13,707 nt of DNA from a virus. The notes beneath the pieces were generated by a model. The model had not been told where the DNA came from. It ran no database searches and saw only the letters and a list, made by a program, of their open reading frames with translations. Shown here one piece after another: positions 1 through 13,707 of this stretch; position 1 is the stretch's first letter, and every line of letters begins with the position of its first letter. The stretch is taken from UHGV virus genome UHGV-1773339; one strand, given 5' to 3'. Both the position numbers and the translations under genes were made by a program.

Positions 1-154
1 ATTAGGAGAATAAATAGAGGAAACGTATCTCATTGATGATTTTCATCATGTTTCACTAGTTTTATACGATTTCCTTTCTTTTAAAAAATCCTTTATTATC
101 AATTTGTTATGAGCTTGTCGTTGTTTTTTTTTGCATTTAAGGGATAAAACAAAA

Positions 155-262
155 GATGATTTTGCTCAAATCTTCGTCTTTGCCTTTTTTGTTTTACTTT
201 GCTTTTTCTATGTCAATTTGCTAGAAATATGCAAAGCAATAATTATTAAGCAAAGTTATAAG
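155..262 (+). promoter_or_regulatory. Putative sopAB promoter/operator region with repeated CTTTGC/GCAAAG hexamers
   Basis: Hexamers tttgct 161-166, ctttgc 178-183, ctttgc 197-202, tttgct 217-222, gcaaag 231-236, gcaaag 250-255. Positions 217-235 form an inverted repeat tttgc-N9-gcaaa. GGAGA Shine-Dalgarno at 264-268, 8 nt before the sopA ATG. F SopA is known to autorepress through CTTTGC-type operator repeats. Exact -35/-10 not assigned. Confidence 0.5.
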
Positions 263-276
263 CTGGAGATGACAGT

Positions 277-1446
277 ATGTCCTTGAAAAAGTTATTACAA
301 GATTGTGTTACGCGCGGTCAAGAAATGACCCAAGCAATTGCTATAGCTCAATTCGGTGATGATAGTCCTGAAGCTCGGCGTATCACGCGTAGATGGGGGA
401 TAACTGAAGTAGCAGATTTAATTGGTGTAACTCCTCAAGCAATAAGAGATGCTGAGAAGAACGGGCGTTTACCTGCACCTGACTTTGAAATGAGAGGAAG
501 AGTTGAACGTCGTGCCGGTTATACCATAGATCAAATCAATAGTATGCGAGCTGTTTTTGGCAACCCAAACCAACGGCCACAAGATAAAAACCCAGTTGTG
601 CTTGCTGTTATGTCACACAAAGGCGGCGTTTATAAAACATCGTCTGCAGTACATCAGGCACAATGGCTAGCATTACAAGGTCATCGTGTTCTTTTAGTTG
701 AAGGTAACGATCCTCAGGGAACAGCCTCCATGTATCACGGTTATGTACCTGATTTACATATACATGCCGAGGATACTTTACTGCCATTTTACTTGGGCGA
801 ACGCGATAACGCTGAATATGCTATAAAACCAACATGCTGGCCTGGACTGGACATTATTCCTAGCTGCCTAGCTTTACACCGTATAGAAACAGATCTCATG
901 CAATATCATGCTCAGGGTAAATTGCCTCACCCTCCTCACCTGATGCTACGCGCAGCTATAGAATCAGTTTGGGATAACTACGATGTTATCGTTATAGATA
1001 GTGCTCCAAACCTCGGTACAGGAACCATTAACGTTGTTTGCGCAGCTGACGTTATCGTTGTTGCTACCCCTGCAGAATTATTTGATTACGCCTCTGTTCT
1101 ACAGTTTTTCACAATGCTTCTCGATCTCCTAGAAAGCGTTGACCTAGGCGGATTTGAGCCGACCGTTCGCTTGCTTCTGACTAAATATAGTCTCACTACA
1201 GGAAATCAATCACGATGGATGGAAGAGCAAATAAGAAATACATGGGGATCAATGGTATTACGTCAGGTTGTACGCGTTACCGATGAAGTAGGTAAAGGTC
1301 AGATAAAAATGCGAACAGTATTTGAACAAGCGGCAAACCAGCGTTCAACACTTAATGCATGGAGAAATGCCGTCTCTATATGGGACCCTGTTTGTCGAGA
1401 AATTTTTGATGATCTAATAAAACCTCGCTGGGAGAACGAAGAATGA
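277..1446 (+). CDS. sopA: Plasmid partition ATPase SopA (type Ia ParA with N-terminal DNA-binding extension)
   Basis: 389 aa ORF with ATG start and SD. Deviant Walker A box in 'VMSHKGGVYKTS'. The long N-terminal extension before the ATPase core is typical of type Ia ParA/SopA. The translation closely resembles F-plasmid SopA as I recall it. Stop overlaps the next gene start (ATGA). Confidence 0.93.
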   Translation: MSLKKLLQDCVTRGQEMTQAIAIAQFGDDSPEARRITRRWGITEVADLIGVTPQAIRDAEKNGRLPAPDFEMRGRVERRAGYTIDQINSMRAVFGNPNQRPQDKNPVVLAVMSHKGGVYKTSSAVHQAQWLALQGHRVLLVEGNDPQGTASMYHGYVPDLHIHAEDTLLPFYLGERDNAEYAIKPTCWPGLDIIPSCLALHRIETDLMQYHAQGKLPHPPHLMLRAAIESVWDNYDVIVIDSAPNLGTGTINVVCAADVIVVATPAELFDYASVLQFFTMLLDLLESVDLGGFEPTVRLLLTKYSLTTGNQSRWMEEQIRNTWGSMVLRQVVRVTDEVGKGQIKMRTVFEQAANQRSTLNAWRNAVSIWDPVCREIFDDLIKPRWENEE

Positions 1447-2432
1447 AACAACGCTCTCTTCTAAAAAATGCTCCGGATATTAATCGCATTATGAGTAATA
1501 ATCATCATGCACCTGAACATCAGCCGGTATCACCTATGGTTGGTGATTTAAAACGTCAACTGAGTTCATTAACCGGTAATAGCATAACTTTGCCAGTATG
1601 CGGACGTAATGTTAACTTTAAGTTAGAGACGATCCCCGCAGATAAAGTAGAAATGGCAACAATGGTATGGCTAGGTAATGAGCGTGATCAAGATTTATTA
1701 AATGAATCTTCTCTAGCTGATTTAATTCCATCTTTTCTAACTTCTGGGCAACAAAATCCGGCTTTCGCAAGAAAAGTGTCAGGTATTGTTGAAGTAGCTG
1801 ATGGTTCTCGAAGACGTAAAGCAGCCATTATAACTGGATGCGATTATCGTGTTCTTATTGGCGATTTAGATGATGAACAAATGCAATGGTTATCGCAGAT
1901 AGGCAACGACTATAGACCTATCAGCGCCTATGAAAGGGGGAAAAGATACCTGCGAAGGCTCCATGAATTTGACGGTAACGTAAAATCTTTAGCTGAAGCC
2001 GAAGGCGTGGATAGAAATATTATCAGCCGATGTATTAATACAGCCGGTTTACCTAAAGATATATTGGCAATATTTAACCATCCTGGTGAGTTATCAGCCA
2101 GAGCAGGAGACGCTCTTTTTAAAGCATATCAGGGACAGGAAGCAGCCATGAAAAATGCTGCATCTCAGTTGCTGAGGATGAAAAAATCAGGTGAAAGTTT
2201 AGATGCGCAAAGAATAATACAGGCTCTTCATGATTTCATTATTGTTGAGAAAAACAATTCACATGGAGAGAAAAGGGAAAAGAAATATGGAGACGGTGTT
2301 GTGGCGAAATATGGGAAAAATTTCACAACATTAAAATTAGATAACAGAAAAATACCATCGCACCTAATGAGTAAAATTGAATCTATTCTTGAGGAGGCGT
2401 TTGGAAATTCTTCCGATGTAAAAAATAACTAA
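1443..2432 (+). CDS. sopB: Plasmid partition centromere-binding protein SopB (ParB family)
   Basis: 329 aa ORF translationally coupled to sopA (ATGA overlap at 1443-1446). Recognisable SopB/ParB-like stretches (e.g. 'ITLPVCGR', 'GNERDQ', 'DGSRRRKAA', 'GNDYRPISAYERG'). Position immediately after the ParA gene. Ends at TAA 2430-2432. Confidence 0.92.
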   Translation: MKQRSLLKNAPDINRIMSNNHHAPEHQPVSPMVGDLKRQLSSLTGNSITLPVCGRNVNFKLETIPADKVEMATMVWLGNERDQDLLNESSLADLIPSFLTSGQQNPAFARKVSGIVEVADGSRRRKAAIITGCDYRVLIGDLDDEQMQWLSQIGNDYRPISAYERGKRYLRRLHEFDGNVKSLAEAEGVDRNIISRCINTAGLPKDILAIFNHPGELSARAGDALFKAYQGQEAAMKNAASQLLRMKKSGESLDAQRIIQALHDFIIVEKNNSHGEKREKKYGDGVVAKYGKNFTTLKLDNRKIPSHLMSKIESILEEAFGNSSDVKNN

Positions 2433-2448
2433 TAGCAGAAAATAGAAT

Positions 2449-2475
2449 AGACCCCATCAGTTATAGATGGGGTCT
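2449..2475. terminator. Bidirectional intrinsic terminator between convergent sopB and the tail/accessory operon
   Basis: Perfect 10-bp inverted repeat agaccccatc / gatggggtct with a 7-nt loop, followed by a T-rich run on the plus strand (taattttatt) and preceded by an A-rich run (T-rich on the minus strand). Lies between the sopB stop (2432) and the stop of the minus-strand ORF (2481). Confidence 0.7.
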
Positions 2476-2480
2476 TAATT

Positions 2481-2768
2481 TTATTCAAAAAATATAAATA
2501 CAAGTAAACACGCCACCACCGGCACAGCAAAATCCATCAGGCTTGCTACATCCCATGCACGCGGATCAAAACCGCCCCACCACGGCATATTCATACGCTT
2601 GCCATGTCCGAACATTTCAATCCAGCGATATTCTGCCTGGGTGTGTTCACGCGCAATGAAGAACGTACAACCGGCTATCGCTCCGTAAGCCCAGTTCCCG
2701 GTAAAAAGACCAATCAGTAGCTGCGCAGCCACAGCACAAAGAGCATGAAGGAAAGGTGTTATATCCAT
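2481..2768 (-). CDS. Small multi-pass membrane protein of unknown function (candidate moron)
   Basis: 95 aa ORF with ATG start. Perfect SD (AAGGAGGAG) sits between the upstream stop TAA and the ATG on the minus strand. Three hydrophobic segments (about residues 5-25, 26-40, 75-94) around a Trp/Gly-rich loop 'MFGHGKRMNMPWWGGFDPRAWD'. No family recognised. Confidence 0.75.
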   Translation of the reverse strand: MDITPFLHALCAVAAQLLIGLFTGNWAYGAIAGCTFFIAREHTQAEYRWIEMFGHGKRMNMPWWGGFDPRAWDVASLMDFAVPVVACLLVFIFFE

Positions 2769-2778
2769 TACTCCTCCT

Positions 2779-3483
2779 TTAACCGATATCGCTTCGGGAA
2801 GTTGATAACAGCTTTAATTCTGACTCAAGTTCATCAACTCTTTCTGTCAGTTTCTGGATATGGTGAATCAGTGGAACAACCAGACGTTCGTACATTACAC
2901 CTTCGGCAACAAGGCCATTGCTGGAAATAGCTTCCGGTGCATCATCTTCGTTAGCTGGTCGCCAGTGTACAAACTGAGGGGCAATTTCTCCTACTTCCTC
3001 GGCAATCAATCCGTAGAATCCCCAGTCACGCCTGTCATTTTCGCATTGCGACCTGTACCACACAGGGCGCATCTTGAAAATGAGATCGGCGTGCTCTGAA
3101 TCTATCGTCTCTACTGAATGTTTATAGCGAATAGACGATGTTGACCGCAGCACAGACGAAATTGCGGGGTCAGGATTAAGATAAAGGTTTGCCGCCGCTG
3201 TAGTCGTGCCCAATCCCCATAAATAAAACGCTTCACGGCCAGTCAGCGGGTAAAAATCTCCACCATAATTACCGCTTTCCAGAGCATTCACTTCCAGTTT
3301 GTTTTTCAGCTTATTATCCACTTCAGTTTTTGTGTATCTGGAGCTGATATCCTGCTTTGCACTGGTCATCTCAGTCTGAAGCGTTGATACTTTTCCGCTA
3401 ATTGAGGAAATATCTTCCTTAGCTTTACTGACATCTCCCTTCAGCGTGGTGATATCTCCCGGAATTACTGTCGATGTAGCCAT
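2779..3483 (-). CDS. Coiled-coil protein with C-terminal peptidase-S74-like intramolecular chaperone domain (tail-fibre/tailspike-type auto-processing domain)
   Basis: 234 aa ORF, ATG start preceded by GAGGGAGA SD. C-terminal half shows the S74/chaperone-of-endosialidase pattern: Ser116...Lys121 dyad spacing ('SSIRYK'), 'DWGFYGLIAEEVGEIAPQFV', 'MYERLVVPLIHHIQKL', terminal coiled coil 'VDELESELKLL'. N-terminal 60 residues are heptad-like coiled coil. Confidence 0.75.
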   Translation of the reverse strand: MATSTVIPGDITTLKGDVSKAKEDISSISGKVSTLQTEMTSAKQDISSRYTKTEVDNKLKNKLEVNALESGNYGGDFYPLTGREAFYLWGLGTTTAAANLYLNPDPAISSVLRSTSSIRYKHSVETIDSEHADLIFKMRPVWYRSQCENDRRDWGFYGLIAEEVGEIAPQFVHWRPANEDDAPEAISSNGLVAEGVMYERLVVPLIHHIQKLTERVDELESELKLLSTSRSDIG

Positions 3484-3492
3484 TTGTCTCCC

Positions 3493-3774
3493 TCACATCC
3501 AGCCACGAAGTTGATGTTCAACTACAACCGCGTATTCATCGAATAATGACGGTGTTTTCACATCATTAATGATGCGCACGTTTACAAAATATCCGTCTTC
3601 CTTAACACATACCGGTTCGCCATCTTCATTCAGCTCTCCGGTTTCTTTGTACACGTTTCCTATCACATCAATGAGAACATTGTTCTGCATCACCTCGTCA
3701 TCGTAATAACCAATGCTATCCATAAAGGCCGAAAAGTCGGCCTTGTTTATGAATTTGAGGGTTAAGTCTCGCAT
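3493..3774 (-). CDS. Hypothetical acidic 93 aa protein, translationally coupled to the tail fibre gene
   Basis: ATG start shares one base with the stop of the upstream fibre gene (TAATG at 3772-3776, minus strand). Its stop is 9 nt before the next ORF start. No motif recognised. The position suggests a fibre accessory or assembly factor. Confidence 0.6.
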   Translation of the reverse strand: MRDLTLKFINKADFSAFMDSIGYYDDEVMQNNVLIDVIGNVYKETGELNEDGEPVCVKEDGYFVNVRIINDVKTPSLFDEYAVVVEHQLRGWM

Positions 3775-5981
3775 TATATTCTTTCTCCCATTTGTGCATC
3801 TGTCAGTTCCTTATGCCAGATACGTAAATTGCGCACGTGTCCAAATAAATGCCTGTTACCTGATATTGATTGACCGCCTATATTTATTGGCCCTTCTGTA
3901 TAACGTTGTCTTGTGTGTTGTGATACACCAACAGCGCCAAAGTTACCGTTTATAACAGCACGCAATTCTTTCTGCTCTGTAAACTTAAACCCAGCAATAA
4001 ACCTGCGGGTTGTCCTGTTACAGTAGGCTTTATACTCGGTCTTTGTTCCTTTTCCGTTAGTTATAATTGAGCGCGCGCCTCCAGAGGTAAAACCAAAATA
4101 CATATAACTTTCATCAGCAACATCCGTTGTTGCGCCAGTTATTGACACGTTAAGAAGCCTTGCTGAACCTTCACTGTTTGGCATTTTGTCCCAGTTGATA
4201 TTAACTTCCATAAGAACGCTTAACGGGGGCGTTGACCAGTTCAGTCTTATTGGCATTATTACCACTTCACTAGCCCGTGTAACTGCCACATCTGATGTAA
4301 CGATAAATGATGATGCACACGATCCTTTTTCAAATTGCGGCGTAGTAAACATTATCTGATCGCCTTTTTTGATCGCCCTTTTATCTGCTCCCATTTCAAA
4401 GCGCCCATACATGCTTTTTGCTTCTGGTGATTTATATGTAAATTCGACGCGTAACCATCCGTTAGCTTCTCTGTATATGACATGATTTACAGCATCCCCA
4501 CCAGAAAAACCTAAAACATCACCAGTTTCGCAATCTATGTAGGAACCAGCTACCAGCGTGTTGCTTGTGCCGTCATCGTTAACGAAAGATATTCTGGGTC
4601 TTAACGTTATAATACCTTCTCCATTTATCTTCTTAACCCTACAGGACAAGGTAACAGATTCATTTGCAGCAACATCAATAACCCTACTGTATCCAGTAGA
4701 TATTATCGTCGCCCTTTCAGTGGTTGATGTTTCCTTTACATCGAACAAACCATATTTAAAACCATATTCATCAACCGATGTGGTTATTTCTATATTCTTG
4801 TCGTCATAGTTCCATAATGAAGGATTGTTACTATTAGTAAATGTATTTGTCCTCTGACCTTCAATTAATAAACCTTCCTTTTCAAAGCGCGGCTCGTTAA
4901 TTTCTGCAAAAGCAAATGAACCTGATTTGTTTATATACGTTGCAGAAGTGGAGCGAGTGAAAGATACAACCTTCTCTGATGGAAAAGTAATAACATCATC
5001 ACCGATAGTTACTTTTTTATAACCAGGAGCGAAACCAGTAATCATTTCCAGCGAATCGTTAAATGGTATCCACACATCAGGAAGCGGCTGCAATACTTGT
5101 TTATACGGCTCCGCAGCCTGGCTTGCATACTCTCTGGCTGCATCCTCACTTGCTTTAGCTGCTGTCTGGCTTGCTGCCGATGCTTGCGCCGAGTTCGCCG
5201 CTGCAGTCTCGCTTGTCTTTGCATTGGTTTCACTGGTTTTTGCAGCTTTTTGACTGTTTGCTGATGCAGTGGCAGAAGCAGCCGCCGCACTTGCAGAACC
5301 AGCTGCGGCACTCTCGCTTTCGGCTGCTGCATCCTGACTGCTTTTCGCCGCAGTTTCACTGACTTTGGCATTCGTTTCGCTGGTCTTCGCTGCCGTCTGG
5401 CTGGACTTTGCGTTAGTTTCGCTCGCCTTCGCGGCTGTTTCGCTATTTTTCGCGTTGGTTTCTGATTTTTTGGCTGCTGTCGCGGAGTTTGCCGATGCAG
5501 TCTGCGAGGTCGCTGCCGCCTGTGCGCTGTTAGCTGCATTCGTTTCTGAGGTTTTCGCCGCGTTCTTCGATGAAGCCGCTGCAGTTTCGGATTTCTTTGC
5601 CGCCGCTGCGCTCTGAGAGGCGGCTTCGGCGTTGCGTGCCGCTTCTTCCACCATTGCCTCAAAACGGCGCAATGCCTCCGGCATGACATCATCTTCCGTC
5701 ATGGCACCGAGAAAATCATTCAGCGTACCTGGTCTGGAACCTTCATAGACGGTAATGGTCCCGGCATGTGAAGGCGGAAAACCTTCAACCAGCAGGGTGA
5801 CGCTGTACTGGCCATACTCAACATCCATGCTGTAACGTCCGGCTTCATCCGGATTTTCAGAAGCCACCGTGTTCACCAGTACCGTGGTGCTGTTACGCTT
5901 TGCCTTCAGTTGAATAGTGCAGTTCTGTATTGGTTTTCCCGCACCATCTTTCAGCACACCTGAGATTTTTACTGCTGCCAT
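3774..5981 (-). CDS. stf: Side tail fibre protein: lambda Stf-like N-terminal anchor, Ala-rich repeat stalk, novel distal region
   Basis: Long ORF. The track begins at a GTG (5987), but the ATG at 5981 gives 'MAAVKISGVLKDG...', matching the conserved Stf N-terminus as I recall it, with GGAG SD upstream. Residues about 120-285 are degenerate Ala-rich 'SETNAK/AAKTSE' repeats. The distal ~450 residues are encoded by lower-GC DNA and end in a LamG/concanavalin-like looking motif ('GNRHLFGHVRNLRIWHKELTDAQM'). Confidence 0.85.
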   Translation of the reverse strand: MAAVKISGVLKDGAGKPIQNCTIQLKAKRNSTTVLVNTVASENPDEAGRYSMDVEYGQYSVTLLVEGFPPSHAGTITVYEGSRPGTLNDFLGAMTEDDVMPEALRRFEAMVEEAARNAEAASQSAAAAKKSETAAASSKNAAKTSETNAANSAQAAATSQTASANSATAAKKSETNAKNSETAAKASETNAKSSQTAAKTSETNAKVSETAAKSSQDAAAESESAAAGSASAAAASATASANSQKAAKTSETNAKTSETAAANSAQASAASQTAAKASEDAAREYASQAAEPYKQVLQPLPDVWIPFNDSLEMITGFAPGYKKVTIGDDVITFPSEKVVSFTRSTSATYINKSGSFAFAEINEPRFEKEGLLIEGQRTNTFTNSNNPSLWNYDDKNIEITTSVDEYGFKYGLFDVKETSTTERATIISTGYSRVIDVAANESVTLSCRVKKINGEGIITLRPRISFVNDDGTSNTLVAGSYIDCETGDVLGFSGGDAVNHVIYREANGWLRVEFTYKSPEAKSMYGRFEMGADKRAIKKGDQIMFTTPQFEKGSCASSFIVTSDVAVTRASEVVIMPIRLNWSTPPLSVLMEVNINWDKMPNSEGSARLLNVSITGATTDVADESYMYFGFTSGGARSIITNGKGTKTEYKAYCNRTTRRFIAGFKFTEQKELRAVINGNFGAVGVSQHTRQRYTEGPINIGGQSISGNRHLFGHVRNLRIWHKELTDAQMGERI
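5133..5630 (-). repeat. In-frame degenerate tandem repeats encoding the Ala/Ser/Thr-rich fibre stalk
   Basis: Repeated gc(a/t)gc-rich DNA encoding reiterated KxSETNAK / TAAKxSE units. This generates the spurious Arg-rich and Ala/Phe-rich ORFs seen in other frames and strands. Confidence 0.7.
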
Positions 5982-5990
5982 ATCCACTCC

Positions 5991-6019
5991 ACAAAAAAGC
6001 CCGCCTGAACCGGCGGGCT
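5991..6019 (-). terminator. Intrinsic terminator downstream of lom
   Basis: On the minus strand: stem agcccgcc / ggcgggct with a 6-nt loop, followed immediately by TTTTTT (plus-strand A-run 5993-5998). Sits between the lom stop (6046) and the stf start. Confidence 0.75.
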
Positions 6020-6045
6020 GTCATAACACTGTGTTACCTGGCTAA

Positions 6046-6645
6046 TCAGAATTTATAACCGACACCCACGATGAAACCGTCAGTGCGCCAGTCGCCACTG
6101 CCGGAGCCTTCATAAGCAATATCAATGGCCACGGATTCGGTCGGGTTAAACTGCACGCCAGCTCCCCACGCCAGAGACGTGTTGCTGTGGCGACCGTCAT
6201 CACTTCCGGTCAGCACATCGTGCGTTTTCCCCTTGTTGTCAGTTACGCGGAGATAATCCCCGGAGAACGTCGAAACACGGCTGTAAGCCACACCTGCCAT
6301 CGCATAAGCACTGAACCATTCATTCACGCGTACAGATGGCCCCGCCATCATGCTGAACCAGCGGTTACGCACTGAATCTTCATGCCAGCGGGTATCGCTG
6401 TAATGCGTTTTTTGCTCATCTTTGGCATTGGCATAACTGAATGACGTCACCAGCCCCAGCGTGTCCGTAAATTCATAACGGTATTTCACGTTAATGCCCT
6501 TCAGGTCATCACTGCCTGGCATATCAGTATGGGCCTGAAGATACCCGGCGCTTAGTGTGGACTGATGCTCTGCTGCGCTCGCTGGCGTACCAGCGGCAAC
6601 CAGCCAGACTACTGCGGACAGAATAACAGCACATAATTTACGCAT
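6046..6645 (-). CDS. lom: Outer-membrane beta-barrel protein of the Lom/Ail/PagC/OmpX family
   Basis: 199 aa. N-terminal signal peptide ('...AAGTPASAAEH'), alternating amphipathic beta-strand pattern, C-terminal '...DWRTDGFIVGVGYKF' with terminal Phe typical of OMP barrels. Synteny (directly after J) as in lambda. Confidence 0.9.
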   Translation of the reverse strand: MRKLCAVILSAVVWLVAAGTPASAAEHQSTLSAGYLQAHTDMPGSDDLKGINVKYRYEFTDTLGLVTSFSYANAKDEQKTHYSDTRWHEDSVRNRWFSMMAGPSVRVNEWFSAYAMAGVAYSRVSTFSGDYLRVTDNKGKTHDVLTGSDDGRHSNTSLAWGAGVQFNPTESVAIDIAYEGSGSGDWRTDGFIVGVGYKF

Positions 6646-6669
6646 AATTACCTCTCGCTTTTCTGCAAT

Positions 6670-6693
6670 AAAAAAGGCGTCATTTCTGACGCC
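6670..6693 (-). terminator. Intrinsic terminator downstream of J
   Basis: On the minus strand: stem ggcgtca / tgacgcc with a 4-nt loop, followed by TTTTTTATT. About 20 nt after the J stop and about 25 nt before the lom ATG. Confidence 0.7.
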
Positions 6694-6712
6694 CGTATTG
6701 GGGTTATAAAAT

Positions 6713-9700
6713 TCAGCTGATACTGATGCCTGCGGTGGCTTTCTTCATCACCACAACCAGCAAATCGCTGATACTTGCTGTGGGATACCAGCCATTTACC
6801 CACCATGCTGATACCGAAAACTCCAGTGTCATTACGCCACTGCCTGCAGGCATATCAATAACACCCGTGTAAATCAGAGTATTATCCAGAGCCGTTCGGT
6901 TATAAATTTCAGCCCCGTTTTTCTTCACTATCAGGCGGCATGACGAATAAGTATCGCTATTCTCCCGTTCATGTCTGGCACCGCTGAAAGCCACCGCTGG
7001 AATAACAATTTGCCGGTCAAACGGCTGATCGTCATAAACCCTGACGGTAATGGTCCCTGATGGCCACCGTTCCGGTGCACGGGAGTCCCGGGGGAAAGCT
7101 TTGCCCACTGTTTTAACGAGATCGCCTTCAATCTGGTTCGCGGACAGTTTTCCCAGAACCCGGCAATTCTCGTTAATCGTGACGTTGTTGAGCGTCCCGG
7201 AGTTCGCATTCACGTTACCGCTGATATCGGCATTTTTCGCCGTCAGCCGCCCGTCCGGTGTCAGGGAAAATGCCGGAGGATTACCGCCGCTGGTAATGGT
7301 GGGAGCCGTCAGGTATTTCAGGAACACTTCGTTCATGAATATCTGATCGCCCTGACCAACAAACATCGGCTTTGTGTTGCCATTCGCAGGATTAATCATC
7401 GCAATCCTGTCTGCCGCCAGCAGCACCTGACTCTGCATGCCGTCAGGGGTGTTTTCAATACCGGCACCAATACCCGCGATATAAAGGCGTCCGTCCTGCA
7501 TCTGCTGCAGCTTCACAGCCCACATGCTGTTCAGGTTATTATTTGTATCAACCTGAACCTTCTGTATCTGCTGGATCGCTGCACTCTGGTCTTCCAGTTT
7601 CTTATTGACGGTCTGCGTGATTTCATTACTGACATCCGTGATGGACGTTCTGATTTCCGCCAGGTCAGGCGCAAGCTGACCGTTATCAATCTGCGTCCAC
7701 AGCTCCTGAGCCAGATGGGTTTTCCCTATCTCTCCTTTGAAAAAATCCAGATAGCCGGATGCATCATCACTCGGCTGGCCAACAGCCTCCACGAATGCCG
7801 ATTTGCCAACGGTGTTCACACTGCGGATGTAAAAATAATAATCATGGCCCGGCTTGATATTGATACTGGCAGCTATCCAGTACAGCGCCGTGCCAAGATA
7901 GCGGGCTGTGGTTTCAACCTGCCTGATATCCGCAATCCGTTTTTCCGAGAACCAGAACTCAAACTGTACCGTCGGGTCATAAACCGCAAGATGCGGCGTG
8001 GCGGTTATCTGAAAATAGCCCGGCGTCAGCTCAATCCGCGACGGCGCTGCCGGTGCGGCAATCCGGAACGATACCGACGCCGGATCGCCCTGCTGCCCCC
8101 AGGCATTTGCCGCCCGGACTGTCAGCCTGTAGTTTCCCAACGCCAGTTGCGTGAAGCGGTATGTGGTTTCCGTCGTCCGGGCCGTGCTGACCAGCCGCTC
8201 ACTGCCGTCATCCGCTGCCACGGTCAGGCGAAGCATAAAGCTCACGCCCTTCACCACCTTCGGCGTGTCCCAGCGCGCCAGCACCTGGTATTCCCCGCTG
8301 TCTGCGGTGACTTCGGCGGTCAGGTGCTGCACCGCTGGCGGCGTGACACCATTCACCGTGCCGCTCTGGTCGCCGTCAAAGTGCGCCCCGTTATCCACGA
8401 TGGCTTCTTTTTCCGGTACATGCTGCACGGCAGTGATGGCATACGTGCCGTCGTCGTTCTCACGGATACTCACGCAGCGGAACAGGCGCTGGCGCAGCGT
8501 CGGCAGCTTCAGCCCCCACACGCTGTATTCTGCAACGCCGTCAGGAACCCGGCTCACTTTCACCTTCACGCCGTCGGTGACGGACTGGACCTCCACGCTG
8601 ACCGGATTGCCACTTCCGTCAACCAGGCTTATCAGCGTGGTGCCGGAGGATGGCAGCGTGATTTCACGGTCGAGCGTCAGCGTCCGGGTCTGGCTGTTCA
8701 CAGCCAGCACGCGCCCGCCGATGCTGATACCGGCATAGTCATCATCGCAGATTTCAATGACATCGCCCGGTACATGGCGAAGCCCTTCAGCACCCACGCT
8801 GAAGTCCACGGTCTGCGTTTCCAGCAGTTCCGTTTTAATCAGCCACAGCCCGGCGCGGTGTGCCTGCCCCCGGCTGGTACAGCCAAAGGCATCCATCTTC
8901 GTGACGTTACGACCGTAACGGGCAATGGCCTGCGTATCTTCAACAAGCTCTGTCGCCGTCTCCCAGCCGTTATTCGGGTCAATCCAGTTCACCTCAACGG
9001 CATTATGGCGGTCCTTCAGGGCGCTGAAACTGTAGCGGAACGGCGCGCCATCATCCGGCATCACCACATTACTGCGGTTATAGGTCCACACCTTATCCGA
9101 CGGTCGGTCCTGCACGAACGTCAGCGTCTGCCCGTTCCATACCGGCATACAGCGCATCGCCGAGCAGAAATCACTGAGCACATCCCACGCCTTGCGCTGT
9201 GTGGTCAGGTACGCATTACAGGTGATGCGCGGCTCCGTGCCGCCAAAGCCGTCCGGCACTGACTGGTCGCAGTACTGGCCGATGACATACAGCGCCCATT
9301 TATCCACATCCGCCGCACCAAGACGTTTCCCCATGCCGTAGCGCGGGTGGGTCAGCATATCCCACAGACACCAGGCCATGTTGTTGCTGTATGCCGGTTT
9401 AAACGTTCCGTCCCAGATACCGCTGTATTGCCGCGTCTGCGGGTTATAATTCGACGGCACCTGCAGAATACGCCCGCGCAGATGATAATTACGGCTCACC
9501 TGCTGGCTGCCGAACTGCTCCGAGTCCACCTGCACGCCGACCAGTGCCGTGTTCGGGTAGCACTGTTTCACATCGATGATTTCGGTGTATGACGACCAGA
9601 GCGTTTTGTTCTGCAGCTGGTCTGTGGTGCTGTCCGGCGTCATCCTGCGCATCCGTATATTGAACGGGCGCGGCGGCAGGTTATCCACCACCACCGAGGC

Positions 9701-10192
9701 CAGATACTGCGAGGTGGTTTTGCCCTTAATGGTGATGTCTTTTTCCGTCACCCAGCCACCGTTACGCTGTATCTGAACCAGCAGTCGGACCTCCGACGGA
9801 TTCCTGTCACCCTTTGAGGTGGTTTCCACCAGTGCCTGTACACCGAAGGTAAAGCGCAGACGGTCGATGTTTGCCGACGTGATGGTCCGGGTGATCGGCG
9901 TGTCATATTTCACTTCCGTACCCAGCACCGTCTCGGAGCCGGAGGATTCAAATCCCTCCGGCGGTGTCTGCTCCTGCTCACCTGCCCGGAAAACCACCGT
10001 GACACCGGAGATATTGGTATTCCCCTCACTGTCCAGCACTGGCGTACTGTTCAGCAGCACGCTTTTTAATCCATCCACCGGACCTTCAACCGGCCCTTCG
10101 CTGATGGCATCGATCACACTCAGCAACTGCGTGGACTTCAGGTTGTCCTTCGCTTCGCGCGGGGTATGCCCCTTACTGCTGCCTTTACCCAT
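6713..10192 (-). CDS. J: Tail tip / host specificity protein J (central tail fibre)
   Basis: 1159 aa ORF with ATG start, N-terminus '[20 protein letters not shown]' as in lambda gpJ. Size and position after I match the lambda order. The final ~1 kb of the gene has lower GC, as expected for a receptor-binding region. Confidence 0.95.
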
Positions 10193-10213
10193 TCCTCACG
10201 CTCCATAAACGAC

Positions 10214-10234
10214 AAAACCGCCCGCAGGCGGTTT
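10214..10234 (-). other. Stem-loop in the I-J intergenic region (possible attenuator or RNA stability element)
   Basis: Inverted repeat aaaaccgcc / ggcggttt with a 4-nt loop. On the minus strand it is followed by tgtcgtttat (only partly U-rich) and then the J SD/ATG. Confidence 0.4.
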
Positions 10235-10252
10235 CACATAAAACATTTTGCA

Positions 10253-10924
10253 TCAGCGACCAATCACCACAACCTGACCACCGTCCCCCTCGTCTGCCGT
10301 GCTGATCTCCTGAGAAACCACGCGTGACCCCACGCGCATTTCCCCGTACAGAACAGGCAGAACATTGCCCTGGGCAACCATGTTATCCAGTGAGGAGAAA
10401 TAGGTGTTCTGCTTACCGTTATCCGTTGTCTGTGTACGGGGAGTTCTGGCTTTCGGTGCCAGCATCTGCGCCACACCACCGAGCACCATACTGGCACCGA
10501 GAGAAAACAGGATGCCGGTCATACCACCGGCCCCAATGGCTGCCCCCCATGCTGCAAGGGTGGCTCCGGCGGTAAAGAATGATCCGGCAATGGCGGCAGC
10601 CCCCAGGACAATCTGGAATACGCCACCTGACTTGGCCCCGGCGACTCTGGGAACAATATGAATCACAGCGCCATCAGGCAGAGTCTCATGTAACTGCGCC
10701 GTTAACCCGGACGTGCTGACGTCCCGCCCGGCAATCCGTACCTGATACCAGCCGTCGCTCAGTTTCTGACGAAACGCCGGGAGCTGTGTGGCCAGTGCCC
10801 GGATGGCTTCAGCCCCCGTTTTCACACGAAGGTCGATGCGGCGACCAAATCGTTGTAAATCCCCGTAAAGGCAGATGCGCGCCATGCCCGGTGACGCCAG
10901 AGGGAGTGTGTGCGTCGCTGCCAT
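10253..10924 (-). CDS. I: Tail tip assembly protein I
   Basis: 223 aa. Gly/Ala-rich hydrophobic central segment. Order K-I-J and size match lambda gpI. Confidence 0.9.
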   Translation of the reverse strand: MAATHTLPLASPGMARICLYGDLQRFGRRIDLRVKTGAEAIRALATQLPAFRQKLSDGWYQVRIAGRDVSTSGLTAQLHETLPDGAVIHIVPRVAGAKSGGVFQIVLGAAAIAGSFFTAGATLAAWGAAIGAGGMTGILFSLGASMVLGGVAQMLAPKARTPRTQTTDNGKQNTYFSSLDNMVAQGNVLPVLYGEMRVGSRVVSQEISTADEGDGGQVVVIGR

Positions 10925-11565
10925 TTGTCGGTGTACCTCTCTCGTTTGCTCAGTTGTTCAGGAATATGGTGCAGCAGCTCGCCGTCGCCGCAGTAAATTG
11001 CGGCGTGATTCGGCACCGATGAACCAAAACAGCACAGCAGCACATCGCCCGGCTGTGCCGCTGACAACGGCACCTGATACAGCCCCGTCGCCTCCAGATT
11101 ATCCAGATAGAGATTCTGGCCGTTACGCCACCAGTCATCCTCACGATGAAAGTCCGGCATCTCAATCCCCGCCAGATGATAAGCATCCCGGAACAGGGTG
11201 TAACAGTCCGTCACACCGTGCTCAAAGCGCCGCCCGGTAAGATGCGGCACACAGCGGAACTTATGAATCGTCCCCCGGCAGACCAGCCACCACGGCAAAT
11301 CACTCTGCACCTGCAGCCGCCGGTCGGCCTCACTCAGCCAGGGCAGACCACCGGGGTGGCTGTGGACCAGCGCCACAATCTCACCCTGCATTTCTGCCTG
11401 CAGCCAGTCTTCCGGCGACATACGGAAATACGCCTCCGGCTCACCGGAGATATTCACGCAGGGGAAATATCTTTCCCCCTCCGGCGTGCTTACCACGAAG
11501 CCGCACGACTCCGCTGGCGCACATCGCCGGGCGTGCGCCAGAATCGCTGATTCTGTCTGTGTCAT
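10822..11565 (-). CDS. K: Tail tip assembly protein K (JAMM/MPN plus NlpC/P60-like peptidase domains)
   Basis: 247 aa. JAMM motif HxHx7Sx2D present ('HSHPGGLPWLSEAD', H68/H70/S78/D81). Downstream Cys121 ('VTDCYTLF') and His residues consistent with an NlpC/P60-type fold. Overlaps I by 103 nt in another frame. Confidence 0.9.
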   Translation of the reverse strand: MTQTESAILAHARRCAPAESCGFVVSTPEGERYFPCVNISGEPEAYFRMSPEDWLQAEMQGEIVALVHSHPGGLPWLSEADRRLQVQSDLPWWLVCRGTIHKFRCVPHLTGRRFEHGVTDCYTLFRDAYHLAGIEMPDFHREDDWWRNGQNLYLDNLEATGLYQVPLSAAQPGDVLLCCFGSSVPNHAAIYCGDGELLHHIPEQLSKRERYTDKWQRRTHSLWRHRAWRASAFTGIYNDLVAASTFV

Positions 11566-11570
11566 GGGAT

Positions 11571-12269
11571 TTACTGCGAAAGTTTGTTAATGGAAAGGAA
11601 GCCGCCAAAGTTGCCGACGTTATTGCGAAACTTACAGCCACTCAGGCATTTGCTGCATTTATCCTTCGTGATATCGGACGTCGGCTGGTCATATTCATCC
11701 GCGACAGCCGGACCGTGATAACCGCACTCATCACCGCGATAGGTCCAGGTGCAGGTGTTGGCCAGCATGATACGTCCCGGAAAAACAGCGCCATCCGTTT
11801 CCGTCGGCGTGGACAGTACAAAGGAGGCACTCACCGCGCTCAGTTCGCTGCACTGCTCGATGCGCCAGCGGCTGATCACCTCCTGCTCCGGATCGGCGTC
11901 ACTGTTTCCGTTGACGAAGTTCACCGCATCCAGAAAACGGGCGTAAACCTTACGCCGGACCACCGTTCCGCCGACCAGACTCTGCAGGTCTTCCGCCATC
12001 CCGGTGACCATGCCGTGCAGGTTAGAAACCGTCAGTGTCGGACGGGCAGCACTGCCCTTGCCGTTCAGTTCAAATCCCGTCCCCTGAATGGGATACGGCT
12101 GATACTGTCGCCCCTGCCAGGTGACCGGCTCACCTTTTTCGTTCTGCTCATTACAGAAAAAATAACGTTCTCCACCGACCTCTGTCAGATCGATTTCCCA
12201 GAGCACCACGCTGGCCGACTGCTCCGCACGGGTGCATTCATTCAGTGTTTCCTGCCGGATATCCTGCAT
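11571..12269 (-). CDS. L: Tail tip protein L
   Basis: 232 aa. C-terminal Cys cluster ('DECGY...DKCSKCLSGCKF') consistent with the Fe-S-binding C-terminus described for lambda gpL. Start overlaps the M stop (TGATG). Confidence 0.92.
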   Translation of the reverse strand: MQDIRQETLNECTRAEQSASVVLWEIDLTEVGGERYFFCNEQNEKGEPVTWQGRQYQPYPIQGTGFELNGKGSAARPTLTVSNLHGMVTGMAEDLQSLVGGTVVRRKVYARFLDAVNFVNGNSDADPEQEVISRWRIEQCSELSAVSASFVLSTPTETDGAVFPGRIMLANTCTWTYRGDECGYHGPAVADEYDQPTSDITKDKCSKCLSGCKFRNNVGNFGGFLSINKLSQ

Positions 12270-12598
12270 CAGTTCACCACCTGTTTAAACTCTGCGCTGA
12301 ACTCAACACGCAGCATACTGACCCGCGACGACCATTTTGCGCAGGTCACCTTTATCTGCCTGTAACCATAAGGCGGCGTCCACAGAAAGGCCTTCCAGCC
12401 TCCGTGCTCTGCCAGAAACGACTCCAGCGCCGTGGCCTCCTCACGGGAGACAGACAGCGTCACGCTGTACGTTTTCAGGTTGGCATTCAGCCCGGCAGGC
12501 GCTCGCTGGGAATAGCCATCACCAAAGCGCACCTTTCTTACAGAAGGGGACGAAGCCACATCCATACCGGGTTTCACTTTCCAGCGGAAGGTTTTCAT
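12269..12598 (-). CDS. M: Tail tip protein M
   Basis: 109 aa, the size of lambda gpM. Start overlaps the H stop (ATGA at 12595-12598). Position between H and L. Confidence 0.92.
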   Translation of the reverse strand: MKTFRWKVKPGMDVASSPSVRKVRFGDGYSQRAPAGLNANLKTYSVTLSVSREEATALESFLAEHGGWKAFLWTPPYGYRQIKVTCAKWSSRVSMLRVEFSAEFKQVVN

Positions 12599-13707
12599 CG
12601 TCCACCTCCGGAGAACAGGCCACCATCACGCATCTGTGTCTGAATTTCATCACGGGCACCCTTGCGGGCCATGTCATACACCGCCTTCAGAGCAGCCGGA
12701 CCTATCTGCCCGTTCGTGCCATCGTTATTGATCTCGATGTTGTACTGCGGGGCAAACATCGCCATACCTGAACCACCAATATCCGCCACAACCCCCAGCT
12801 TACCGTCAGCACCACGACGCAGTGGCAGAATGGCTTCAGGTCCCGCTTCCCCCATCACACCCGCGCCTTTTGCAAAAGCAAAAAACGTCGGACGGTTAAC
12901 CACCGTGCCACTGTAACGACTCAAATCAGCAGACTGATAAATCCCCCCATTGGCATTCAGGGAAAGGCTGCTGAGATCAAATCCCAGTACACTGCCAATC
13001 CCTTTTATCGATTTCATCATGGTTGCCTGCGCCAGGATTTTCGCCATATCTGACAGCACAGAAGAGGTGAAGGATTTGAAATTGAGTTTGCCGGTAGTGA
13101 CAAAAGTTGCCAGGCCATTTCCCATGTTGCTGAAGGCTGACGAGAACACCTGTTCTGCTGTTCCTGCCGTATTATCTGCATCCACGGTAAAATCCTGAAA
13201 TGCACGCAGGACTCCGTTTTTCCAGTTACCCTGCACAACTTCAAGCTGTTGCCAGTAACGGCGATTCTCATTCAGTTGTCGGTTCAGGCTCTCCGTCAGC
13301 GCCTGCTCGGCCTTTCTGTAGTCATCCGTGTTATATGTTCCTTTCTGCTCACTATCCCGCCTCAACTGCTCCAGCTGTTGCTGGTATTTCTGGCGAAGAC
13401 TCAGTTGTATCTGATATCGCTGCCGCTGCTGATCACCCATACCCACCGTGGCGATATCCAGGTCATGTTGCTGACGCTGAGCGCGCTCTTCTTCAGCCAG
13501 TTGACTGGTCAGCTGAATTGTTTTTTTCTTCAGCTCGTTGAGTGCCGTCTGTTTCTGAAGCTCCTGCTGTTTTACATCCAGCAGCGTCAGTGCCTGAATC
13601 AGTTCATCTTTACGGGCCAGCACACTCTTTTCATCTGCCGTCAGTTTTTTCCCGTCCAGGTCGCTGATGCGCTGCTGCAGAGCCAGAAGCTGTTTATGCG
13701 CTTCTGT
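12595..13707 (-). CDS. H: Tail tape measure protein H, C-terminal part (5' end lies beyond the window)
   Basis: Reading frame stays open from 12598 to the right window edge. The track start at 13623 is an internal GTG. Coiled-coil-rich sequence followed by Gly-rich C-terminus. Position upstream of M. Confidence 0.88.
   Translation of the reverse strand, partial: TEAHKQLLALQQRISDLDGKKLTADEKSVLARKDELIQALTLLDVKQQELQKQTALNELKKKTIQLTSQLAEEERAQRQQHDLDIATVGMGDQQRQRYQIQLSLRQKYQQQLEQLRRDSEQKGTYNTDDYRKAEQALTESLNRQLNENRRYWQQLEVVQGNWKNGVLRAFQDFTVDADNTAGTAEQVFSSAFSNMGNGLATFVTTGKLNFKSFTSSVLSDMAKILAQATMMKSIKGIGSVLGFDLSSLSLNANGGIYQSADLSRYSGTVVNRPTFFAFAKGAGVMGEAGPEAILPLRRGADGKLGVVADIGGSGMAMFAPQYNIEINNDGTNGQIGPAALKAVYDMARKGARDEIQTQMRDGGLFSGGGR

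Follow-up and report, generated by a model that had tools for sequence, protein, structure and literature searches.

A probable SopA operator of the plasmid F type in the sopAB leader of an N15-like phage-plasmid of Escherichia coli

The stretch of DNA that we analysed (the window; 13,707 nucleotides of the virus genome UHGV-1773339) is, judging by its sequence, part of an N15-like linear phage-plasmid of Escherichia coli. Over the first 2.5 kb, it has 99.8% identity to Escherichia phage PhiR46_1 (46.3 kb; the host is E. coli ECOR13) and 100% identity to plasmid p13TMH22-2. A literature search for a description of PhiR46_1 found no paper. The sopA leader at the start of the window is rare, as it is present in 6 of 5,426 complete E. 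coli genomes. The genes and the related features that we will refer to are:

277-1446, + strand: sopA, encoding a type Ia ParA ATPase of 389 amino acids with an N-terminal winged helix-turn-helix; the presumed repressor
about 394-522, + strand: the winged helix-turn-helix of SopA (about amino acids 40-82)
1443-2432, + strand: sopB, encoding a ParB-type centromere-binding protein (Pfam SoPB_HTH, E = 1.6e-23)
265-268, + strand: Shine-Dalgarno sequence GGAG, read from the sequence, 8 nt 5' of the sopA ATG
3774-5987, - strand: tail-fibre gene, one of the lambda/N15-like tail genes
6046-6645, - strand: lom, another of the lambda/N15-like tail genes
6713-10192, - strand: gpJ homologue, also among the lambda/N15-like tail genes

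SopA shares 93% identity with N15 SopA and 75% with F SopA. It matches Pfam's AAA_31/CbiA, with an additional weak match to the MerR helix-turn-helix at amino acids 42-68, and it is homologous to the P7 and P1 ParA structures 3EZ9 and 3EZ2. SopB is presumed to be a co-repressor that enhances the binding of SopA; this role is carried over from F (PMC8465637, section 3.8).

The surroundings are those of the sop locus of N15: sopAB lies beside the telL hairpin telomere and is convergent with lambda-like tail genes on its other side. The telomere is to the left of the window. In the 100%-identical record, the core of an N15-type telO palindrome lies about 181 nt to the left of position 1. This perfect palindrome is centred on the junction of CCATTATACGCG and CGTATAATGG and matches the N15 telomere core. 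Because its centre is about 181 nt before position 1, the window seems to start near the telL hairpin end, with the layout that N15 has.

Some database records are odd at this end. For example, the 100%-identical plasmid record NZ_CP019258.1 (L047) was deposited as a 75-kb circle. At 3800-3840, it contains a perfect palindrome with the N15-type telO core (CCATTATACGCGCGTATAATGG), and the sopAB region is present twice, inverted around this palindrome. The circle looks like an assembly artefact due to read-through of the hairpin telomere of a linear phage-plasmid of about 46 kb. The IMG/VR contig 2724679539_000001 (L007/L042) has the same doubled and inverted pattern. Also, many IMG/VR contigs stop 390-520 nt upstream of sopA. 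At least four copies of TGTGTTCT(C/T) are found in the interval from the telomere palindrome to the sop leader (3860-3990 of NZ_CP019258.1, which is outside the window), and the equivalents in N15 are repeats of the ATGTTC/TGTTCT type. These copies may be repeats of the tos region that bind protelomerase or some other protein.

As for the centromere, searches of the entire window (1-13707) found no SopB sites of the F type (GGGACCnnGGTCCC, with up to 2 mismatches) or of the N15 type (GTGCGACCnnGGTCGCAC, with up to 3 mismatches), and no sopC array follows sopB. The absence of these palindromes from the window fits with centromere sites that are dispersed elsewhere on the replicon, as they are in N15.

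The subject of this analysis is the leader of sopA. A prior reading of the sequence alone (the sequence-only reading) described six CTTTGC/GCAAAG hexamers at 155-262, four of them direct and two inverted, and proposed that they form an operator through which SopA represses its own promoter, as in F. Within 155-262 we find four exact copies (178-183 and 197-202 on the + strand; 231-236 and 250-255 on the - strand), while the other two are near copies that match at 5 of 6 bases (TTTTGC at 160-165 and ATTTGC at 216-221). The pentamer TTTGC is common to all six, and there is a seventh TTTGC at 130-134. So the cluster is real, and it is not random (see below), but it comprises four exact hexamers rather than six. 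The features of the leader are:

178-183, + strand: site #1, CTTTGC, exact; invariant in 31 of 31 anchored leaders (2.0 bits); at the same position as #1 of F and N15
197-202, + strand: site #2, CTTTGC, exact; the left half of the perfect inverted repeat #2/#2'
216-221, + strand: site #3, aTTTGC (5/6); the left half of the inverted repeat IR3-4, at the position of #3 in F and N15; overlaps the predicted -35
231-236, - strand: site #2' (GCAAAG on the + strand), perfect here; #2' was defined in PMC8465637
250-255, - strand: site #4 (GCAAAG on the + strand), at the same position as #4 of F; overlaps the expected transcription start
212-217, - strand: GTCAAT (3/6), a putative vestigial site #1', 28 nt downstream of #1
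160-165, + strand: TTTTGC, the first hexamer of the sequence-only reading; probably outside the operator
218-246, + strand: predicted sigma-70 promoter, with -35 TTGCTA (218-223), a 17-nt spacer, and -10 AATTAT (241-246)

The sites are regularly spaced. The gaps between #1 and #2 and between #2 and #3 are both 13 nt, and the gaps between #2 and #2' and between #3 and #4 are both 28 nt. A perfect inverted repeat of the form CTTTGC-N28-GCAAAG occurs once in the window, and this is #2/#2'. The span from #1 to #4 (178-255) is 73% A+T, which is the same figure that is reported for the F operator (PMC8465637), and 21 nt separate its end from the sopA ATG at 277.

This arrangement is familiar from plasmid F. 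In DNase I footprints, F SopA (ParAF) protects the hexamer CTTTGC, and the protected stretch of the F promoter PparAB runs from #1 to #4, over about 87 bp (Boudsocq et al. 2021, PMC8465637). In F, sites #1 to #3 are direct copies of CTTTGC with 13-bp gaps, #4 is inverted and is 28 bp downstream of #3, and #2' is degenerate, inverted, and 27 bp downstream of #2 (PMC8465637). For the binding sites #1, #2, #3, #2', and #4, that paper cites Mori 1989 and Komai 2011. N15, phiKO2, and pLVPK have the same layout as F (Boudsocq et al. 2021, PMC8465637; N15 is in Fig. 5C). [quoted passage not shown] The three-dimer model rests on this one study of F. The window's leader is not among the 16 promoters that were analysed, and the authors reported that they found no close relative of the N15 promoter (Boudsocq et al. 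2021, PMC8465637).

The window's leader is like F's in its use of CTTTGC, in the 13-bp gaps between direct sites, in having inverted sites 27-28 bp downstream of #2 and #3, and in being about 73% A+T. In both cases, the gene that follows directly encodes a type Ia ParA, and the winged helix-turn-helix recognition segment is identical. On the other hand, the perfect inverted repeat of F is #3/#4, and its #2' is degenerate (GCAAga, with a 27-bp gap), while the window is the reverse, with a perfect #2/#2' (28-bp gap) and with aTTTGC as #3. The spacer sequences of F and the window are over 50% different. In N15, the positions of the sites and the gaps between them are identical to the window's, but the three direct sites are perfect and the two inverted sites are degenerate (GtAAAG, which is #2', and aCAAAG), whereas in the window the inverted sites are perfect and #3 is degenerate. 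Outside of the sites, the N15 leader is largely unrelated to the window's. F-like operator sites have reportedly been described in the N15 sop promoter, and the N15 Sop proteins are said to partly cross-repress the F promoter. Alignment with the F and N15 leaders had been suggested as a check on the sequence-only reading, and that check comes out in its favour: both leaders carry CTTTGC at matching relative positions. These comparisons support an operator of the F/N15 type that would comprise three direct and two inverted sites, plus a vestigial third inverted site. The count of four direct sites does not hold up, as the fourth would be the hexamer at 160-165, which is unconserved and has a 12-nt gap.

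The sites are also conserved across relatives. Scans of viral and genome collections for SopA gave 44 loci. (The genome collection alone gave 4, of which one, L006, with 25% identity, is irrelevant.) We compared 45 leaders, including the window's and those of F (L002) and N15 (L001), which were taken as references from annotated records. Of these leaders, 34 are distinct, and 31 align gap-free from #1 to #4. Across the 31, the mean information content is 2.0 bits for #1, 2.0 for #2, 1.86 for #3, 1.53 for #2', and 1.71 for #4. The spacers average 1.0-1.44 bits, and the five sites are the most conserved columns. If we compare the window to single relatives instead, then 0-5 of the 30 site positions differ, versus 11-27 of the 48 spacer positions (one-sided Fisher p = 1e-5 to 4e-3). 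Lack of conservation in related sop leaders would have counted against the operator, but the five sites keep their positions in 31 distinct leaders while the spacers diverge. For the hexamer at 160-165, the expectation of conservation fails: it is absent even from relatives with 99% identity. At #3, TTTGC is invariant across the relatives, and the first base is A in the window's lineage and C elsewhere.

In L013, the gap between #1 and #2 is 14 nt instead of 13, due to an extra T in a run of T. In L004 (Enterobacteriaceae bacterium LSJC7, whose SopA is 71% identical), the operator is rearranged, and its parts are CTTTGC-N13-CTTTtC, CTTTGC-N28-GAAAAG, and a separate CTTTGC-N29-GCAAAG.

The protein that would recognize these sites is conserved as well. 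The SopA segment QAIRDAEK.GRLP.PD...RGRVE.R.GY is invariant in the window, N15, F, and three other lineages (six in all). Because the recognition and wing residues of the winged helix-turn-helix are invariant, we expect that these proteins have the same DNA specificity.

It is harder to be precise about the promoter. A stricter scan of 1-400 for consensus promoters found none on the + strand, so we turned to an approximate position-weight scan, whose calls are indicative only. Inside the operator, the predicted promoter TTGCTA-17-AATTAT is the only good candidate. It is identical in L010, from the sister lineage, but it is weak, with 8 of 12 positions matching the consensus. Another possible -10, AATAAT at 238-243, is without an acceptable -35. 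Sites #3, #2', and #4 bracket the predicted core promoter and the presumed transcription start under either choice of -10. The -35 of F and N15 is TTGCTT and lies at the position of #1', whereas the best -35 and -10 in the window and in L010 are about 5 bp further downstream relative to the sites.

Before we interpret the operator, we consider whether the hexamers might be something else. Could the cluster be an accident of a T-rich and AT-rich leader? The leader is 72% A+T with many T runs, and across the entire window CTTTGC is not enriched (12 found versus 10.5 expected) and neither is TTTGC, which is what we would expect of an accident. Nevertheless, 4 of those 12 copies are packed into 78 bp. 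We shuffled the leader (1-276) 20,000 times while preserving its dinucleotide composition: no shuffle reached four CTTTGC (mean 0.24), and just six reached seven TTTGC (mean 1.67). Also, the spacing is identical to that in F and N15, and the positions of the motifs are conserved while the spacers have diverged. The shuffles and the conservation effectively refute this explanation, and we give it almost no weight. We consider it very unlikely, if a little less so, that the hexamers serve another protein instead of SopA (for instance SopB, the protelomerase TelN, or one of the host's nucleoid proteins, as IHF is). The leader is about 340-440 nt from a hairpin telomere, and the expression of sop in N15 is reportedly also controlled by the protelomerase, so a role for TelN would not be out of place. 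But F is a circular plasmid that has neither a telomere nor TelN, and it has the same hexamers with the same spacing. SopB-type sites, for their part, are GC-rich palindromes of 16-18 bp, and CTTTGC is the motif in ParAF's footprint (PMC8465637).

An alternative that deserves somewhat more attention, although we still find it improbable, keeps SopA as the binding protein but treats the six hexamers as independent, with one SopA monomer on each, so that 160-165 would be a genuine site and the tttgc-N9-gcaaa inverted repeat that the sequence-only reading pointed out would be a palindrome that binds a dimer. All six copies do share TTTGC, 160-165 is about one repeat unit upstream of #1, and an older model for F had one monomer per hexamer (Komai 2011, as summarized in PMC8465637). 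However, the gap from 160-165 to #1 is 12 nt rather than 13, and the equivalent positions have TTTTGT in L007 and L008 (whose SopA is 100% identical), TTTAGC in L010-L018 (99% identical), and unrelated sequence in N15 and F. Its mean information content is 0.82 bits, versus 2.0 for #1 and #2. The footprint in F begins at #1 (PMC8465637), and 160-165 is beyond the equivalent region. We therefore rejected it as a fourth direct site. Given that it is not conserved and is incorrectly spaced, and that a T-rich leader like this one should contain about 1.7 copies of TTTGC by chance, the simplest explanation is that 160-165 is a chance copy, and it probably is one. (We also rejected the TTTGC at 130-134, which is TATGC in the sister lineage and whose spacing is unrelated to that of the other sites.) As for the inverted repeat, it exists (217-221 and 231-235, with a 9-nt gap), but it joins #3 to #2', and the published dimer model does not pair these two. 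In that model, the pairs are #2/#2' and #3/#4, each with a 28-bp spacer. If two N28 inverted repeats are interleaved with an offset of 19 bp, then a pair that is 34 - 19 = 15 bp apart, centre to centre, follows arithmetically, so the N9 pair is a by-product; F has a similar feature, CTTTGC-N8-GCAAga. Furthermore, ParAF is a dimer in solution whose helix-turn-helix domains are about 10 nm apart, which suits N28 and not N9 (PMC8465637).

We conclude that 178-255 is very probably the SopA (type Ia ParA) operator of the sopAB promoter, homologous to that of plasmid F, and that repression is probably by dimers of SopA. The proposal of an F-type operator in the sequence-only reading is thus upheld, on the basis of five sites at the relative positions of those in F and N15, the footprinted hexamer, its conservation, and the invariant recognition segment of SopA. 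The sites, their spacing, their conservation, and the conserved DNA-binding segment of SopA we observed directly; the binding of SopA, its stoichiometry, and the repression we infer by homology. The operator can be described as interleaved N28 inverted repeats: #2/#2' is perfect, #3/#4 is aTTTGC-N28-GCAAAG, and #1 would have only a vestigial partner. By analogy to F, a dimer of SopA in its apo or ADP-bound form would place one winged helix-turn-helix on each half-site, with the half-sites about 34 bp apart (centre to centre). The dimers would lie on one face of bent, AT-rich DNA and would assemble cooperatively, with probably three dimers over about 85 bp. Such a complex would cover the -35, the -10, and the transcription start, so that RNA polymerase would be occluded and sopAB would be repressed. 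SopB, as the co-repressor, would raise the affinity of SopA.

Similar principles apply in the more distant P1 and P7 systems. There too, the winged helix-turn-helices of a type Ia ParA dimer bind inverted half-sites that are 26-29 bp apart, the half-sites overlap the par promoter, and ParB is a co-repressor. The half-sites differ, though (TTATGC and ACGTGC, within a large imperfect palindrome), and the proteins are far more distant.

The differences from F raise the question of whether the operator works in the same order. Since #3 is imperfect here, and #3/#4 is where assembly nucleates in F, the affinities of the sites or the order of assembly may differ from F. There is also variation around the vestigial site. 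The window has GTCAATTTGC at 212-221, while the sister lineage (L010-L018, whose SopA is 99% identical) has GCAAATTTGC, which is a perfect 10-bp palindrome. Within GCAAATTTGC, two bases are shared by #1' (GCAAAt, 28 nt after #1) and #3 (aTTTGC), and this overlap is a possible reason why #3 begins with A in the window's lineage. (At the equivalent of 212-221, the phiKO2-like leaders L024 and L028 have GCAACTTTGC and GAAACTTTGC.) Putting these together, we tentatively suggest, without being persuaded of it, that the operator of this lineage has been rewired relative to F. In this scenario, #2/#2' would nucleate assembly instead of #3/#4, the sister lineage would have a near-complete third repeat (#1/#1', with #1' fused with #3), and the core promoter would have moved about 5 bp downstream. 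If so, these natural variants would put the model with three overlapping ParA dimers to an independent test, and they would also probe how much the registers of the operator and the promoter can slide against each other.

This type of operator is well known, so the finding is correct but ordinary, and our understanding of how partition is controlled is unchanged. The value is mostly for annotation: the analysis locates the promoter-operator of sopAB in a group of N15-like phage-plasmids of E. coli and marks the bases that matter. It also adds natural variants to those that support the three-dimer model of type Ia ParA autoregulation through overlapping inverted repeats, namely the perfect #2/#2', the degenerate #3, and the GCAAATTTGC palindrome of the sister lineage.

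The constrained element may be longer than the hexamer. Immediately 3' of the direct sites there are runs of T (CTTTGC-n-TTTT; 184-188 and 203-208 in the window), and 5' of the inverted sites there are runs of A, and both kinds of run are kept across lineages. This conservation suggests that the element may be about 11 bp rather than 6, or else that phased A-tracts are selected for DNA bending.

Finally, the leader contains a direct repeat, with GATGATTTTCATCA at 35-48 and GATGATTTTGCTCA at 155-168, 120 nt apart. The first of these contributes to a small palindrome (TGATGA-tt-TCATCA), and the upstream promoter-like site that scores highest, TTGATG-18-TAGTTT at 33-62, overlaps with it. The GATGATT part of the repeat is kept in the sister lineage. 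The repeat could be related to a second sop promoter that lies upstream.
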